Assembly: GCA_040754075.1 (NCBI GenBank)
Contig: JBFMDH010000001.1
Span: 166,262 to 230,261, forward strand
Source: Acidobacteriota bacterium
Lineage (GTDB): Bacteria; Acidobacteriota; Blastocatellia; UBA7656
Direction: 5' to 3'
DNA: 64,000 bases
Part shown: in pieces, positions 49,092 through 58,950 of the stretch
Layout: each line of letters begins with the position of its first letter
Position numbering within the stretch: position 1 is the stretch's first letter
The notes under the pieces: generated by a model
Told to the model about the DNA's origin: nothing
What the model saw: only the letters and a program-made list of their open reading frames with translations
Database searches by the model: none
Program-made: the position numbers and the translations under genes

Positions 49092-52000
49092 ATGCCGGAA
49101 TATTCCTTTCGTCTGACAATTATTTTTCAGACTTTTGAAAATGACACTGAGCTTGCCGAAGCTCTTTTTTTTCCCGAAATCTCCCGATTTGGCGATAAAG
49201 CGAAAAAATTAGAGAACGCGGTTAAGGAAAATGTCGTGCGCCTTGTCGAAGAAGACGATGCGCTCGCGCTCTATCGTCGTCACTTTACGAGCGAGCCTGA
49301 ACTTGGTGAAGCGCGCGTCACCGTCAATCCGCCACCGAAATCCATCGCCTGGCAAAAGCCGATTGATCTTACTTTTCAAATCCTGCTCTTTACGCATGGC
49401 GAAGACCTGTACATCGCTCACCTTCCACAACTTGGTATCGAAATCATTGGCAGAAACCGGGAAGAACTTGAAGAGAAAATTCCCGCAGAAATTCACGCGC
49501 ATCTCTTACGCATCAAAAAAAATCGCTCACTTGGCGAATTGTTCTGGTTGCAACGCGCCAAAGCGATTCGCCTGGCGCGAACCACTTTTGACGCGACCAT
49601 TCGCACGCCGAAACAGATAGCCAAAAGTCAGTATGCCGCTGACGAAGAGAAAAAATCCGAGCTTGAAAAAGTGGCGACCGATTTAGTCAAAGAGCATTTA
49701 CCGGAGGCTTTTGAGATAGACGAAACCGTCACCCGCATTGCAGACGCGCTTGGCGGTCGCCATCCGCGCAGTGTTTTACTGGTCGGCAAATCGGGCGTCG
49801 GCAAAACCGCTGCGGTGTATGAACTGGTGCGCCGTCGCGCGGCGTTTCGTCTGAGTCGCACACCGTTTTACGCAACCAGCGGCTCGCGACTGGTTGCCGG
49901 CATGTCAGGTTTTGGCATGTGGCAGGAACGTTGCGGCAAAGTCTGGCGCGAGGCTGCAAAACAAAAAGCGATTCTGCATTTCGGCAATCTGCTCGAACTG
50001 ATGGAAGTTGGCAAAAGCACGGCGAACAATCAGGGTATCGCGTCATTCTTTCGCCCCTACATCAGTCGTGGCGATTTGCTCTGCATTGCCGAATGCGCGC
50101 CTGAACAATTGCCCATCATTGAACGCGAAGCGCCAAATCTGCTTGACGCTTTTTTGCAAATTAAAGTTGATGAACCGACAGTTGAACGCGGTTCGGCAAT
50201 TCTGCTGCATTATGCGATTGCGCAAAGCGGGCGCGAGTCGCCGGTTGACCTCGAAGCGATTGAAACGATTGATCGGTTGCATCGCCGCTATGCGACTTAT
50301 TCAGCCTATCCCGGTCGCCCTTTGCGGTTTTTGAAAAATTTATTGCAGGATCGCAAAGGCGGTTCCATCAATGCCGCGATGGTCACTGCGCGTTTTTCCG
50401 AAGAGACCGGTTTGCCGCTATTTTTACTGAACGATGACCTGCCGCTCGATTTAGCGGCGACGCAGAAATTTTTCAGTGAACGGGTCATCGGACAAGCGAG
50501 CGCCGTTGAGTTGGTGGTTAATTTACTGGCGACCGTCAAAGCGCGGCTCACGCGAGCCGGAAAACCGATTGCGTCGTTGATGTTCATCGGGCCCACCGGC
50601 GTTGGCAAAACCGAAATGGCAAAGGCGCTTGCCGAATTCTTATTTCAAAATCGCAATCGCCTGATTCGTTTCGATATGAGCGAATATGCCGATGTGAATT
50701 CCATCGGGCGACTGATTGGCGGCGCGTGGGGAAAAGAAGGCTTGCTTACCGCGAAGGTGCGCGAACAACCGTTTGCGGTGATTCTGCTTGATGAATTTGA
50801 GAAAGCCCATCCGTCATTTTTCGATTTGTTGTTGCAGGTTCTGGGCGAAGGTCGTTTGACCGATGCGATGGGGCGGGTTGCCGATTTTACCAACGCGGTG
50901 GTGATTATGACTTCCAATCTCGGCGCGGAAACTTATAAACGCAATGCGCTGGGGTTTCGTGACGCGACGGATGCCACTGCGCAGGCTCGCGAACATTTTA
51001 TGAAAGCGGTGCAGGCATTTGTGCGTCCCGAATTTTTCAACCGCATCGACCGTATCGTGCCGTTTACACCGCTTGATGAAGCGACCGTATTGAAAATTGC
51101 CCATCGTGAACTGCAACAGATTACGCGACGCGATGGCATTTTCTATCGCGGGGTTGAATTAAATATTACCGAGCAGGTGGCTGAGCGATTGGCGCGAATC
51201 GGCTACGATGCGCGGTATGGGGCGCGACCTCTGAAACGCGCCATCGAACGAGAATTGCTGGTGCCGATTTCCGAAGCGTTGAATTTGCAAACCCTCGATG
51301 TCGGTTTACAGGCGGAGGTGACTGTCGAAGGCGATGAATTGAGTGTAGCGGTGCGCCTTAAAACCGATGAAGCCGGGCGCGTGATTTCCAAATCGTCGAA
51401 GAGCGCGCCGTTTGCCGAACTGGTAAAACAGGCGGCGAAACTCCGCCGCGATGCGCAGAACCTGCGTGGCAGTATCTTTGTTCAGGAGATTCAAAACGAA
51501 ATATTCAACCTTGAACGACTGGCGATGCGGCTTGCGAAAAATAAAACAAAAAATAAATGGCAAGACCCGGCGCAAGCTACAAGCCTTGCGCGGTTGCCCG
51601 ATTTGAAAAATAAATTACAGGCGCTTGAGGTATTCGTCACCCAAACGGCGCAATTTGAAGACGCCGTGTTGTTCTGTTTTTACGGCAAGGAGACCGGCGA
51701 TAAAAACGGTTTGCAGGCGCAACTTGCCGGGATGCAAAAACAGTGGACGGCGCGGTTGTTGGAAATTTACGGATTGCAATTTAAAAAGCCGGATGCGGTG
51801 ACGGTGGCGCTCTATTCGGAAAATGCCAACTGGTTATTTGAACTGGCGCGTGCCTATTTTGAAATCGCGAAACAAATCATGGCGAACGTCGAGGTTGTGG
51901 AATTTGCGGTGCCGTCGCATCAGGAAAGCGAAGCGATAAAGCTTCGCGTCAAAGCCGGTGAAAAAGTTGAGGTTTTTAATTTGCTGGGGCGCGTGACCAT

Positions 52001-56643: not shown

Positions 56644-58950
56644 ATGCCGAGTTTTCGTTTTCCAATTTTAATCTGGGAAGACCACGAAGGATATTTTACC
56701 GCGTGTCCGGTCGAGGGTTTTTATAACACTTTTGCGGGAATAGGTCGCAGTGCCAGTGAAGCGGTTTTTCAATTGAAAGAATTTCTCGCTTATCACTACG
56801 AGAAAAACCCCTGGGCAGCGCCGCCCGATTTTCACGACGCCAAACTCATCGAATTTCGCGCTGATGTGCGCCCGGAATATCGCATTGAAGAAATTGTCGG
56901 CGACCGCAAACAAAAAAATATTTACCCGACCGAAGAAACCCTCGCCTTGCGTTTTGCCTGTGTACACGGCAAACAGCAAGCCGGATTGCTCATCTGTGTG
57001 CTGCCGCTTTTCGGCATACAATTTTATTACTACGATGAAAAGAAACTGAAAGAACTGGCGGTCACCTATGTGCAGGAGAGTTTCAAAGGTCTTGCCCCAC
57101 AACAACTCACAAGATTCTTACCGCCTAAAAATTATCGACTTGATGAAATCGTCATCAATGTTTCACGCAAAGAAACCAGATACGAATACCAACCCTCGCT
57201 TGACACCTTGAACGAAATTGCCGAACCCCTCGGCGACAAACGATTGCGCAGACAATTTTCCGCCGCCTGGGAGCGTGACACGGAAGTTAGAGACCTCGCC
57301 CAGCGCATCGGCAAAGAGAAAGCCAACGTCATCATCGTCGGCGACAGCGGCATCGGTAAAACCACTTTGCTGGTGAACGCGGTGCGTGAAGTTGAACAGC
57401 ATATGATTGCGGGCGATGACGAAGAAAACGCCGGGCGCAAAGCCAGACACCGATTTTATTTGACCAGCGGCGCGCGCATCATCGCAGGGATGCGCTATCT
57501 CGGTCAGTGGGAAGAGCGGGTTGAATCGCTCATTGATGAGCTTGCGGAAATCAATGGCGTGTTATGCGTCGGCAGCATTTTGGACTTAATCCTTGCAGGC
57601 GGTGAAGTGAGCGCCAGCATCGCGGCATTTTTACAGCCCTTTCTGCAACGCGGCGAATTGCAACTCGTAGGCGAAGCGACGCCCACCGAACTCGATGCCT
57701 GCCGAAGATTATTGCCGGGATTTGCCAGCCTGTTTCAAATTCTCAATCTGCAACCGTTCAATCGCGCCCAGGCGATTGCGATTTTGCAACGCGCTTCGGA
57801 AACTTATCAGCGCAATTATCGCATTGAGGCGGCAAGCATCCTGCCGGAACTCGTCTATCGTTTGTTCAATCGCTTCTCGCCTTATCAGGCATTCCCCGGA
57901 AAAGCCATTGCCTTTCTGCATTCGGCATTTGAACGCGCCGAACTTGAACATAAAACGGCAATCACCGGCGAAGACCTGATTCAAAAGTTTGTGCGGCAGA
58001 CCGGACTCCCCGAACTTTTTTTACGCGATGAATTGCCGCTCAACCAGTATGACATCGTTGAATTTTTTGAACAGCAGGTCATCGGGCAACGCGCCGCCTG
58101 TGAAGTTGCGGCAAATCTGGTGACTACATTCAAAGCCGGGTTGAACGACCCGCAACGCCCGATTGGGGTGTTGCTGTTTTGCGGGCCGACCGGGGTTGGC
58201 AAAACCCAACTCGCAAAAGCGATTTCGGAATACCTGTTCGGACAAGGCGAAGAACGCAACCGCTTAATCCGGCTCGATATGAGCGAATATGGCGATTTCG
58301 GCGCGGCAGAACGTTTGATTACCAAGCCCAATGGCGAGCCGAGCGATTTGATTCAGCGGGTACGCCAGCAACCATTCGTTGTGGTGTTGTTCGATGAAAT
58401 CGAAAAAGCCGACGTAGCGGTTTTCGATGCGTTGCTCAGTGTTTTCGATGAAGGGCGCATCACCGACCGTTACGGGCGAACCACTTCATTTCGCAGCGCC
58501 ATCATTATCGCGACGTCGAACATCGGCGCAGATAAAACCGCGAGCATCGGATTCGATGGTCACAATGTGCGCGGTTTTGCCGCGGAGGTGATGACTTTCT
58601 TTCGCCCGGAATTTTTTAATCGCCTGGATGCGGTTGTCGGTTTTCGCGCGCTCGACGAAGAAGCGATTCTCAACGTAACGCGCAAAGAATTAGCTGAGAT
58701 TGCCAAACGCGAAGGGATAAACGCCTCGAATACCAGATTAATTTGGACAGAACGATTAATTGAATATATGGCGAAAGCCGGTTATGACGCGCGATATGGC
58801 GCGCGCCCTTTGCAACGCACCATTGAACAGATGATCGTTGCGCCGCTTTCGCGATTCCTGCTTGAACACCTGATGAGCAAAGGCAAAACCATTCAAGCCG
58901 ATTTCCTCAATGGCGAAATCCGTTTTTCAACTACGGAACATACGGAATAG
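56644..58950 (+). CDS. Atypical Clp/Hsp100-like double AAA+ protein 3 (paralog), no C-terminal extension
   Basis: N-terminal PILIWEDHEGYFTACPVEGF..GRSASEAVFQLKEFL (HicB-like) x2; NBD1 GDSGIGKT with Walker B replaced by CVGSIL and Arg-finger replaced by GFASLFQ; NBD2 GPTGVGKT, VVLFDEIEKAD, ATSN, GARPLQR; pore loop KPNGEPS. Confidence 0.75.
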   Translation: MPSFRFPILIWEDHEGYFTACPVEGFYNTFAGIGRSASEAVFQLKEFLAYHYEKNPWAAPPDFHDAKLIEFRADVRPEYRIEEIVGDRKQKNIYPTEETLALRFACVHGKQQAGLLICVLPLFGIQFYYYDEKKLKELAVTYVQESFKGLAPQQLTRFLPPKNYRLDEIVINVSRKETRYEYQPSLDTLNEIAEPLGDKRLRRQFSAAWERDTEVRDLAQRIGKEKANVIIVGDSGIGKTTLLVNAVREVEQHMIAGDDEENAGRKARHRFYLTSGARIIAGMRYLGQWEERVESLIDELAEINGVLCVGSILDLILAGGEVSASIAAFLQPFLQRGELQLVGEATPTELDACRRLLPGFASLFQILNLQPFNRAQAIAILQRASETYQRNYRIEAASILPELVYRLFNRFSPYQAFPGKAIAFLHSAFERAELEHKTAITGEDLIQKFVRQTGLPELFLRDELPLNQYDIVEFFEQQVIGQRAACEVAANLVTTFKAGLNDPQRPIGVLLFCGPTGVGKTQLAKAISEYLFGQGEERNRLIRLDMSEYGDFGAAERLITKPNGEPSDLIQRVRQQPFVVVLFDEIEKADVAVFDALLSVFDEGRITDRYGRTTSFRSAIIIATSNIGADKTASIGFDGHNVRGFAAEVMTFFRPEFFNRLDAVVGFRALDEEAILNVTRKELAEIAKREGINASNTRLIWTERLIEYMAKAGYDARYGARPLQRTIEQMIVAPLSRFLLEHLMSKGKTIQADFLNGEIRFSTTEHTE

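Follow-up and report, generated by a model that had tools for sequence, protein, structure and literature searches.

A conserved array of three Clp/Hsp100-like paralogs with a degenerate first ATPase ring and release-factor-like C-terminal domains

Three AAA+ proteins encoded side by side

The plus strand of a 64,000-nucleotide stretch of an Acidobacteriota genome (contig JBFMDH010000001.1; hereafter the window) carries three intact long open reading frames (ORFs), here named P1, P2 and P3 (table 1). Each protein consists of an N-terminal domain and two nucleotide-binding domains, NBD1 and NBD2, which correspond to the first and second ATPase rings of double-ring unfoldases; P1 and P2 end in a further domain of ~350 residues. 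The original prediction for this DNA singled out positions 49780-58650, from the Walker A motif of P1 NBD1 (49785) to the arginine finger of P3 NBD2 (58629), and held that NBD1 is a conserved pseudo-ATPase and that the pore-loop tyrosine of NBD2 is missing from all three paralogs. Each motif string that it quoted occurs once, at the expected place. Here, we examine these claims across orthologs and describe the module to which the proteins belong; the conserved association of three paralogs, and the release-factor-like domains that two of them carry, are more notable than the observation from which the analysis set out.

Pfam recognises the second half of each protein. All three match AAA_2 (PF07724, E 6e-37 to 6e-47) and ClpB_D2-small (PF10431, E 2e-13 to 2e-16), located in P1 at residues 491-654 and 661-735, respectively, and upstream of AAA_2 there are only weak P-loop matches. 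The Clp_N repeat domain is not among the Pfam matches of P1, P2 or P3. Neither the ~200 N-terminal residues of the three proteins nor the C-terminal ~350 residues of P1 and P2 have a Pfam match even at E 10, or any match in NCBIfam or PADLOC, and these extensions are identifiable only through structure prediction. P2 is identical to a protein (P0001) of an Acidobacteriota metagenome-assembled genome (MAG), annotated there merely as 'AAA family ATPase'. Across NBD1 and NBD2, structures of ClpB, ClpC and ClpA are matched at E 1e-78 to 1e-93, and by sequence P1, P2 and P3 belong to the Clp/Hsp100 class-I superfamily. The NCBIfam models for ClpA, ClpB, ClpV/TssH, ClpK and ClpG all match at 190-380 bits, the best at 323-378, far under their cutoffs of 885-1900; therefore, no named Clp class applies, and NCBIfam holds no specific model for the family.

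The first ATPase ring

Orthologs were taken from 80 loci in 80 other genomes (46 of P1, 69 of P2 and 40 of P3), and the motif tables cover 47 P1, 70 P2 and 41 P3 proteins, 158 sequences from Acidobacteriota and the Planctomycetota/Verrucomicrobiota group. The register of NBD1 was established with a HMMER alignment of P2 to Thermus thermophilus ClpB (1qvr) and a MAFFT alignment in which ClpB segments were combined with nine paralogs of three genomes. Residues 213-447 of P2 match ClpB 168-402 (domain E 2.9e-17) and also ClpC1 (2.8e-23), with Walker A, the pore loop and the sensor-1 threonine in register with those of Clp NBD1, and the sensor-1 threonine retained. The ClpB Walker B motif ILFIDELH falls on ILHFGNLL in P1, ILYFDDLL in P2 and VLCVGSIL in P3, and its arginine-finger motif ALERRFQ falls on LLDAFLQ, GFADSFH and GFASLFQ. 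Both methods thus bear out the substitutions originally read from the window, namely LDAFLQ, FADSFH and GFASLFQ for the finger, HFGNLL and CVGSIL for Walker B FIDELH in P1 and P3, and FDDL kept in P2.

Across the orthologs, the pattern is conserved. The Walker A lysine is present in 157 of 158 sequences, in keeping with the claim that this motif is retained in all three paralogs, and the Walker B glutamate is present in none. P1 has G-N/P/S at the Walker B acidic positions, with glycine at the aspartate position in 46 of 47; P2 has D-D (69/70); P3 mostly has E/D followed by N/R/S, so that the G-S of the window's own P3 is atypical. An arginine occupies either canonical finger position in two of the 47 P1 proteins and in no P2 (0/70) or P3 (0/41), which makes 2/158 overall. 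Other arginines lie close by: R363 of P2, within E-R-D-R-G-F, is invariant and stands four residues upstream of the canonical finger, and the R354-R355 pair of P3 is conserved ~eight residues upstream. The pore-1 loop is among the best-conserved segments of NBD1, reading G-[FY]-G-M-W in 47/47 P1, [YF]-V-G-Q-W in 66/70 P2 and Y-L-G-Q-W in 40/41 P3. By sequence, the loops of P2 and P3 are of the textbook aromatic-hydrophobic-glycine type, set in a ring for which hydrolysis is not predicted.

Mean identity within the ortholog sets is 51-59% for NBD1 and 60-65% for NBD2. Since NBD1 approaches the level of NBD2, its degeneracy is old, fixed and under selection and does not reflect chance or decay, in agreement with the proposal that NBD1 is conserved. 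Between P1, P2 and P3, NBD1 identity is 26-30%, and the three are equally distant from ClpB; the paralogs therefore diverged early and have all been retained. The original prediction concluded that ring 1 binds nucleotide without hydrolysing it. The motifs of P1 and P3 support this well, and those of P2 do so only in part. An Asp-Asp Walker B is catalytic in STAND NTPases, and because P2 combines an invariant D-D with an invariant nearby arginine, its class of ring-1 sites could still turn over ATP.

The second ATPase ring

NBD2 is essentially invariant in all of its catalytic motifs across the 158 sequences: Walker A, the Asp-Glu of Walker B, sensor-1 (T-S-N), the arginine finger (N-R-[ILM]-D) and sensor-2 (G-A-R). 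Its pore loop is altered. The ClpB loop GAPPGYVGYEEGG corresponds to GGAWGKEG in P1, GTFHQPEG in P2 and TKPNGEPS in P3, each five residues shorter, and both the five-residue deletion and the loss of the canonical G-Y-V-G tyrosine are found in 158/158. The replacement of GYVG by GAWGKEG, GTFHQPEG and KPNGEPS is thereby upheld, with the exception that four of the 70 P2 orthologs place a tyrosine beside the phenylalanine (e.g. GTFYQPEG). Alignment against ClpB yields no intact Asp-Glu or finger pair in NBD1 and no canonical tyrosine loop in NBD2. Aromatic residues in the short loop are distributed unevenly, with phenylalanine in 63/70 P2 proteins (G-T-F-x-Q-P-E-G), phenylalanine or tryptophan in 24/47 P1 and no aromatic residue in P3 (0/41). 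The suggestion that the pore is unlike that of classical unfoldases therefore holds for ring 2, with its deletion and missing GYVG, but not for ring 1, which keeps a canonical aromatic loop, and P2 keeps its phenylalanine even in ring 2. A threading pore is still likely, because the aromatic loops of ring 1 are conserved and P2 contributes a phenylalanine to the loop of ring 2.

Between sensor-1 and the arginine finger of NBD2 lies a short loop with the motif [LIV]-G-[FLY] in 58/70 P2 and 36/41 P3 proteins. In the alignment, NLGF of P2 falls on GLGF in Mycobacterium tuberculosis ClpC1 and on SIGL, of ClpA origin, in the ClpB/ClpA (BAP) chimera 5ofo; GLGF of ClpC1 and SIGL of ClpA are ClpP-docking loops. 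The presence of an LGF loop distinguishes ClpC from ClpB (PMC10149685).

The N-terminal domain

The N-domains of the three paralogs are homologous to one another (hhalign probability 94% and E 1.3e-7 for P1 versus P2; 97% and E 5.8e-11 for P1 versus P3). An AlphaFold2 model of P2 residues 1-215, built from a 23-sequence alignment (predicted local distance difference test score, pLDDT, 85), comprises two beta-beta-beta-alpha units followed by a low-confidence linker. The modelled fold resembles that of the antitoxin HicB. This resemblance is at the level of the fold only, because a P2 N-domain profile found no HicB among PDB sequences.

The release-factor-like C-terminal domain

The predicted structure of the C-domain points to class-I release factors (RFs): the top 48 Foldseek matches are all RF1 or RF2 (best E 4.5e-8). 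A profile of 24 P1 C-domains compared with the PDB has RF2 as its top seven sequences (E 1.9e-4) and is collinear with RF2 residues 5-160, 171-194 and 312-327, which fall in domain 1 (5-100), domain 2 (100-194) and domain 4 (312-327). The P2 profile finds RF2 in the same order, at a weak E of 0.095, and hhalign links the P1 and P2 C-domains at 83% and E 9e-6. In P2, the residues with the strongest conservation (V315, R317, D327, R329, G331 and L332 in alignment numbering) map onto the RF domain-4 motif, where V-R-I-Y...D-L-R-S-G-L of P2 compares with I-R-S-Y...K-D-H-R-T-G-L of RF. P3 has only 34-50 residues after sensor-2 in 41/41 orthologs, and hence no such domain.

The elements on which RF activity depends are missing. 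Between the RF2 domain-2 and domain-4 matches, ~65-85 residues are absent from the P1 and P2 profiles, and P2 has ~30 residues in place of the GGQ domain. GGQ itself occurs in 0/47 P1 orthologs and as five stray, unconserved tripeptides among 70 P2. Stop-codon recognition in RFs relies on the PxT/SPF loop and the GGxE tip of helix alpha-5. In the C-domain profile alignments, the G-A-G-G-T-E tip (RF2 PGAGGTEA) is deleted or replaced; in the P1 and P2 consensus, the loop after ExGxH is short and unconserved, and no conserved loop of PxT/SPF type is found. Because the GGQ domain 3, the alpha-5 tip and the PxT/SPF loop are gone, the C-domain is, to judge from its motifs, a release-factor scaffold unable to cut peptidyl-tRNA and very probably unable to read a stop codon.

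A search of 1.84 billion representative proteins with the C-domain returned this family only, as 699 clusters (50% identity) at E<=0.001, and no canonical RFs or stand-alone copies. The module lies at the C-terminal end of the protein in all of the best 150 of these 699 matches; short matches look like truncated ORFs, because the match always reaches the C-terminus. No canonical RF gene was present in the window or in 83 loci to serve as a local reference.

Two further features of the C-domains were observed. A conserved LPLPxEL motif lies near the C-terminus of P2 orthologs (residues 1095-1101; 55833-55853 on the plus strand in the window) and might be a docking peptide. In the alignment of P1 C-domains (window 51300-52391), R49, R50, Q53, E120 and D121 in the domain-1-like helices are invariant and have no counterpart in P2; therefore, the RF-like domains of P1 and P2 may have different partners.

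Distribution and gene order

At E<=1e-20, 988 homologs of P2 were found; the best 117 of these are full-length (~1040-1200 aa) and, in the Acidobacteriota (Blastocatellia) and Planctomycetota (Gemmataceae) assemblies that encode them, bear generic names only. A scan with the P2 N-domain motif, restricted to one genome per species, found 105 species, including members of Blastocatellia, Pyrinomonadaceae, Gemmataceae, Pirellulaceae, Phycisphaerales, Tepidisphaeraceae, Verrucomicrobiota and Lentisphaeria; among the Gemmataceae with the family there is a cultured host, Gemmata algarum JC673.

Acidobacteriota and Planctomycetota both have loci with P1, P2 and P3 in this order on one strand. Among loci with enough flanking sequence, P1 is upstream of P2 in 43/57 (41 by the overlap criterion, plus L007 and L082, where P1 is upstream too) and P3 is downstream of P2 in 36/54; all three genes are contiguous in at least 20 of the 42 loci that have both flanks. 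P1-P2 junctions have a 4-bp start/stop overlap in 8/42, and many P2-P3 gaps measure <=16 bp, a pattern typical of co-translated partners. Neighbour clustering, run after shadow ORFs were filtered out, revealed no fourth conserved component such as ClpP, an adaptor, HicA or ribosomal genes, and any other family adjoins the array in at most 7 of the 82 loci.

Individual arrays depart from this pattern in several ways. In the Pyrinomonadaceae group (L014, L016, L019, L028 and L036), a 1664-aa gene lies on the opposite strand downstream of P2; in L028 it occupies 13441-18456 (minus strand) and displaces P3 by ~7 kb. In L001, from a 4.5-Mb genome, the array is interrupted at 9478-9849, 13295-13941 and 14214-14609 by PDDEXK_3, a PIN/DUF2281 toxin-antitoxin pair and DUF433. 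The intergenic spaces thus seem to tolerate insertions, in L001 of small mobile-type genes. Truncated or split copies of P1 or P2 occur in the MAG loci L005 (10001-12535), L028 (9986-12178) and L078 (6620-11557); the P2 of L005 (protein P0016) has 844 aa and no RF-like domain. These copies could be frameshifts, assembly errors or real losses of the C-domain.

Coordinates and surrounding DNA

Table 1. Features of the three-gene array and its surroundings, in positions of the window.
Feature	Position	Strand	Description
P1	49092-52394	+	1100 aa; HicB-like N-domain, degenerate NBD1, active-looking NBD2, D2-small, release-factor-like C-domain
P1 N-domain	49092-49691	+	~200 aa; homologous to P2 and P3 N-domains
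P1 NBD1 motifs	49785-50159	+	Walker A GKSGVGKT (49785-49808)
P1 NBD1 pore loop	49896-49934	+	AGMSGFGMWQERC
P1 NBD1 Walker B remnant	49971-49994	+	ILHFGNLL; G298 and N299
P1 NBD1 Arg-finger remnant	50139-50159	+	LLDAFLQ; D352 and A353
P1 NBD2 motifs	50589-51239	+	Walker A 50589-50612; shortened pore loop GGAWGKEG 50718-50741; Walker B LLDEFEKAH 50784-50810; sensor-1 MTSNLG 50907-50924; ALGF loop 50946-50957; Arg finger FFNRID 51033-51050; sensor-2 GARPLKR 51219-51239
P1 C-domain	51441-52391	+	resembles RF domains 1, 2 and 4; without GGQ domain
P2	52551-55877	+	1108 aa; architecture as in P1
P2 N-domain	52551-53060	+	two beta-beta-beta-alpha units, HicB-like fold; low-confidence linker to ~residue 212
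P2 NBD1 motifs	53277-53660	+	Walker A GERLVGKT (53277-53300)
P2 NBD1 pore loop	53400-53438	+	SGMSYVGQWENRL; Y288
P2 NBD1 Walker B	53475-53498	+	ILYFDDLL; D313 and D314
P2 NBD1 Arg-finger region	53628-53660	+	ERDRGFADSFH; invariant R363; D367 and S368 at finger positions
P2 NBD2 motifs	54096-54734	+	Walker A 54096-54119; shortened pore loop GTFHQPEG, F561, 54225-54248; Walker B LFDEIEKAH 54291-54317; sensor-1 54414-54431; NLGF loop 54450-54461; Arg finger FFNRLD 54528-54545; sensor-2 GARALKR 54714-54734
P2 C-domain	54879-55874	+	helical domain-1-like part and domain 2/4-like alpha/beta part
P2 C-domain ETGAHLF	55548-55568	+	
P2 C-domain VIRVYEENGATLDLRSGL	55725-55778	+	
218-aa ORF between P2 and P3	55897-56553	+	outside conserved module
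P3	56644-58950	+	768 aa; N-domain, degenerate NBD1, NBD2, D2-small; without release-factor-like domain
P3 NBD1 motifs	57340-57738	+	Walker A GDSGIGKT (57340-57363)
P3 NBD1 pore loop	57484-57522	+	AGMRYLGQWEERV; Y285
P3 NBD1 Walker B remnant	57559-57582	+	VLCVGSIL; G310 and S311
P3 NBD1 Arg-finger region	57700-57738	+	CRRLLPGFASLFQ; conserved R354-R355; S362 and L363 at finger positions
P3 NBD2 motifs	58183-58818	+	Walker A 58183-58206; aromatic-free short pore loop TKPNGEPS 58321-58344; Walker B LFDEIEKAD 58387-58413; sensor-1 58510-58527; SIGF loop 58543-58554; Arg finger FFNRLD 58612-58629; sensor-2 GARPLQR 58798-58818
Purine-biosynthesis cluster	38348-44029	+	adenylosuccinate lyase, PurQ-like amidotransferase, PurL-like formylglycinamidine ribonucleotide (FGAM) synthase; upstream of array

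The array is flanked by housekeeping genes: purB, purQ, purL, an alpha/beta hydrolase and an aldo-keto reductase upstream, and murA, a HIT protein and an M28 peptidase downstream. The purine-biosynthesis cluster places it in an ordinary chromosomal context. The 218-aa ORF between P2 and P3 has no match in Pfam, NCBIfam or PADLOC; its hydrophobic N-terminal segment, ending ...TPTAKAC, resembles a signal peptide or lipoprotein signal. It was seen in this window alone and is probably a lineage-specific insertion, because the closest related locus (L004) has just a 140-bp gap at that position. Scans of the window for the heat-shock operator CIRCE (controlling inverted repeat of chaperone expression) and for Rfam families gave 0 matches each, and promoter and terminator consensus scans performed no better than on shuffled sequence, with no convincing hit. 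Pfam gives no match at E<=1e-5 for two other sizeable ORFs of the window, 7251-9587 (minus strand, 778 aa) and 44125-45075 (plus strand, 316 aa).

A proposed mixed double-ring machine

From the gene structures, the motif states and their conservation, the domain folds and the gene order, we propose that a self-contained three-gene module of Acidobacteriota and the Planctomycetota/Verrucomicrobiota group encodes an uncharacterised double-ring AAA+ machine. P1, P2 and P3 would assemble into one mixed hexamer; we infer this because the gene order is conserved in both phyla, 4-bp overlaps occur and the paralog-specific features are complementary. P2 has D-D, R363 and the ring-2 phenylalanine; P3 has the R-R pair, no C-domain and no ring-2 aromatic; P1 has the Walker B glycine and a weak xGF loop. 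Ring 1 would bind nucleotide, stabilise the assembly and grip substrate with its aromatic pore loops, its hydrolysis presumably lost in P1 and P3, such that at most the P2 sites would be competent. Ring 2, with all catalytic motifs and a short tyrosine-less loop whose aromatics come from P2 and some P1 only, would be the motor, and the xGF loop under it suggests that substrate could be handed over to ClpP. The HicB-like N-domains and the RF-like C-domains of P1 and P2 may direct the machine to the ribosome or to an RNA-protein complex.

For this composite reading, of one mixed Clp/Hsp100 hexamer with a largely non-hydrolysing ring 1, a motor ring 2, possible ClpP docking and a translation-related target, we consider the chances to be evenly balanced. 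Our confidence in the division of labour between the rings is higher. Passages on ClpA and ClpB in two reports (PMC8666677, PMC6593972) describe D2/AAA2 as the main motor, which the proposed grip by ring 1 and drive by ring 2 matches. ClpP docking falls a little short of an even chance. Targeting to the ribosome, which is drawn from the fold and is the weakest step, is more doubtful. The host phyla have no ArfA, and ArfB and RqcH, likewise back-up ribosome-rescue factors, are patchily distributed in them (8/46 and 8/46 in Acidobacteriota; 107/211 and 7/211 in the Planctomycetes-Verrucomicrobia-Chlamydiae (PVC) group; PMC11633108), which is compatible with such targeting as circumstantial evidence.

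Several observations weigh against the composite reading. About half of the loci with enough flank have one partner not within 7-10 kb, and P2 stands alone in eight loci, so the genes are separable; part of this apparent absence is due to insertions, since the 1664-aa gene pushes P3 beyond the fetched flank in Pyrinomonadaceae. The xGF loop is weak in P1, being canonical in 10/47 with [SATP]GF usual, and ClpP is never a neighbour of the array. The RF-like domain has lost its codon-reading and cutting elements, which makes ribosome binding an extrapolation from fold, and the scaffold could simply have been reused. The hetero-oligomer is deduced from sequence and gene order. An active ring without a canonical aromatic loop beneath an inactive ring that has one is unusual, with no worked-out Hsp100 precedent.

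The paralogs might instead form three separate homohexamers with different clients that are merely co-regulated: each has a complete NBD2 with its own trans-acting arginine finger, so that an active homomeric ring is possible in principle, and P2 occurs without P1 or P3 within 7-10 kb in L008, L011, L035 and L066, with two of the three genes at other loci. We regard this as unlikely, given a gene order common to both phyla, frequent 4-bp overlaps and paralog-specific invariant features that complement one another; a P3 ring would have no ring-2 aromatic and no targeting C-domain, and a P1 ring no canonical xGF loop. A stronger challenge concerns the fate of the substrate. The proteins could act as a stand-alone remodeller or disaggregase without ClpP, like ClpB, ClpG and ClpL, the conserved GF being a structural remnant. 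No clpP is linked to the array, P1 mostly has no hydrophobic residue in the tripeptide, the side facing ClpP might have little room, given large C-terminal domains on four of the six subunits, and the region from sensor-1 to the arginine finger is equal in length to that of ClpB. Yet the [LIV]GF of P2 and P3 sits exactly at the position of the ClpC1/ClpA docking loop, and there is no M-domain for coupling to Hsp70; a ClpP-independent machine is therefore a real possibility, although we do not favour it.

Two other explanations were rejected. The HicB-like fold of the N-domain, matches to the PADLOC models PDC-M37B and DolB at E 1e-19 to 1e-34 and the toxin-antitoxin genes (PIN/DUF2281, PDDEXK_3) between the paralogs in L001 would suit a role in anti-phage defence or conflict, with the AAA+ proteins as sensors or neutralisers of an invader. 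However, the PADLOC matches are limited to the generic AAA_2 core (residues ~456-636) and no partner genes were found; no effector or HicA-like partner is conserved nearby, the flanks are housekeeping, the inserted toxin-antitoxin genes vary by locus, and each family is 51-65% identical across two phyla, unlike fast-evolving defence genes. With that context, and with no partner genes, a defence role is very improbable. Least probable of all is that the genes are decaying Clp duplicates, pseudogenes or products of neutral drift without function. The loss of NBD1 catalytic residues and the truncated or split copies in the MAG loci L005, L028 and L078 might hint at decay, but the ORFs are intact (768-1108 codons), the substitutions are fixed in 41-70 orthologs per family, NBD1 is conserved almost like NBD2 and the C-domain family comprises 699 sequence clusters, and the conservation data contradict it.

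The mixed hexamer can be carried one step further. It might dock on ribosomes, for example at a vacant or stalled A site, through GGQ-less RF mimics and RNA-binding-type N-domains, and there extract or unfold a protein or nascent chain bound to them, which might then go to ClpP. We think this extended scheme improbable. If true, it would give prokaryotes an equivalent of the ribosome-associated segregases of the Cdc48 or Drg1 type known from eukaryotes, and would add a new route of rescue or quality control in phyla that lack ArfA and have ArfB and RqcH only patchily.

The mixed ring, if real, would be a rare bacterial example of an Hsp100 ring in which three paralogs have specialised. As a natural experiment in divided labour, it would pair a gripping ring apparently without hydrolysis with a hydrolysing ring whose loop is truncated and tyrosine-less, and would bear on the coupling of pore-loop movement to hydrolysis across the two tiers of double-ring unfoldases. 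With its RF-like domain fused to an unfoldase, the family offers a testable lead to a new connection between translation and unfolding or proteolysis driven by ATP. It is sizeable, comprising ~700 clusters at 50% identity and over 100 species, and since at least one host, Gemmata algarum JC673, is cultured, experiments are feasible.

Comparison with known systems

P1, P2 and P3 share with ClpA and ClpC two AAA+ modules followed by D2-small, intact catalytic motifs in NBD2 and, in P2 and P3, an [LIV]GF motif at the position of the ClpP-docking loop; Escherichia coli ClpA 184-720 aligns with P2 213-742 in one uninterrupted stretch. They differ in having neither Clp_N nor the ClpC-type M-domain, in an NBD1 without the Walker B glutamate and arginine fingers, and in the NBD2 loop, five residues shorter than one with GYVG. 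Three obligate-looking paralogs take the place of one gene, HicB-like and RF-like domains are added, and the NCBIfam ClpA model gives 286-373 bits against a cutoff of 993.

ClpB/Hsp104 provides the best overall PDB match (T. thermophilus ClpB, E 8.5e-93), and NBD2 including D2-small is 43-51% identical. The M-domain is missing, however: the alignment passes from P2 213-447 (ClpB 168-402) to P2 439-743 (ClpB 518-825), skipping ClpB 402-518. P1, P2 and P3 also differ from ClpB in the absence of Clp_N and GYVG, in the degenerate NBD1 and in the presence of an xGF loop, and score 323-378 bits with the NCBIfam ClpB model against a cutoff of 1232. To call them plain 'ClpB paralogs' would miss these defining features, together with the ClpA/C type of the xGF loop, the HicB-like N-domain and the GGQ-less C-domain.

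ClpI of Actinomycetota is a Clp class beyond ClpA, ClpB and ClpC, recognised recently and defined by bioinformatics, and resembles the present family in its variable N-domain and in having subtypes with or without LGF loops (PMC10149685). Unlike P1, P2 and P3, it keeps its ATPase and translocation motifs and an M-domain, is encoded by a single gene, is confined to Actinomycetota and has no RF-like domain (PMC10149685).

The added domains each recall another protein. The C-domain of P1 and P2 has the domain 1 fold and the domain 2/4 superdomain of RF1/RF2, but is devoid of the GGQ domain 3, the GAGGTE tip and a conserved PxT/SPF loop, and is fused to the C-terminal end of an AAA+ protein. Plant PrfB3 is a GGQ-less derivative of class-I release factors. 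The N-domain and HicB have a fold in common and no detectable sequence similarity; the paralogs have no DNA-binding C-domain and no HicA conserved in their neighbourhood, and the domain is tandem-looking and fused to an ATPase. In the literature searched, including the ClpI paper (PMC10149685) and a survey of RF evolution (PMC6514570), no description of the family was found, nor of an RF fold stripped of catalysis and codon reading and fused to an unfoldase.

ClpA, ClpB, ClpC and their relatives in the matched solved structures each consist of a single protein species. Mixed AAA+ rings of several paralogs are far better known from eukaryotes. In Pex1/Pex6, paralogs alternate in one double ring, D1 binds ATP without hydrolysis and serves assembly, and D2 is the motor. 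With its mixed type-II ring and inactive D1, this complex is the nearest functional analogy to the mixed ring proposed here. It differs in belonging to the classic AAA+ clade and not to Clp/HCLR, in being eukaryotic and in having two paralogs. The aromatic pore loops of Pex1/Pex6 lie in the active ring, whereas in P1, P2 and P3 the canonical aromatic loop lies in the ring predicted to be inactive.

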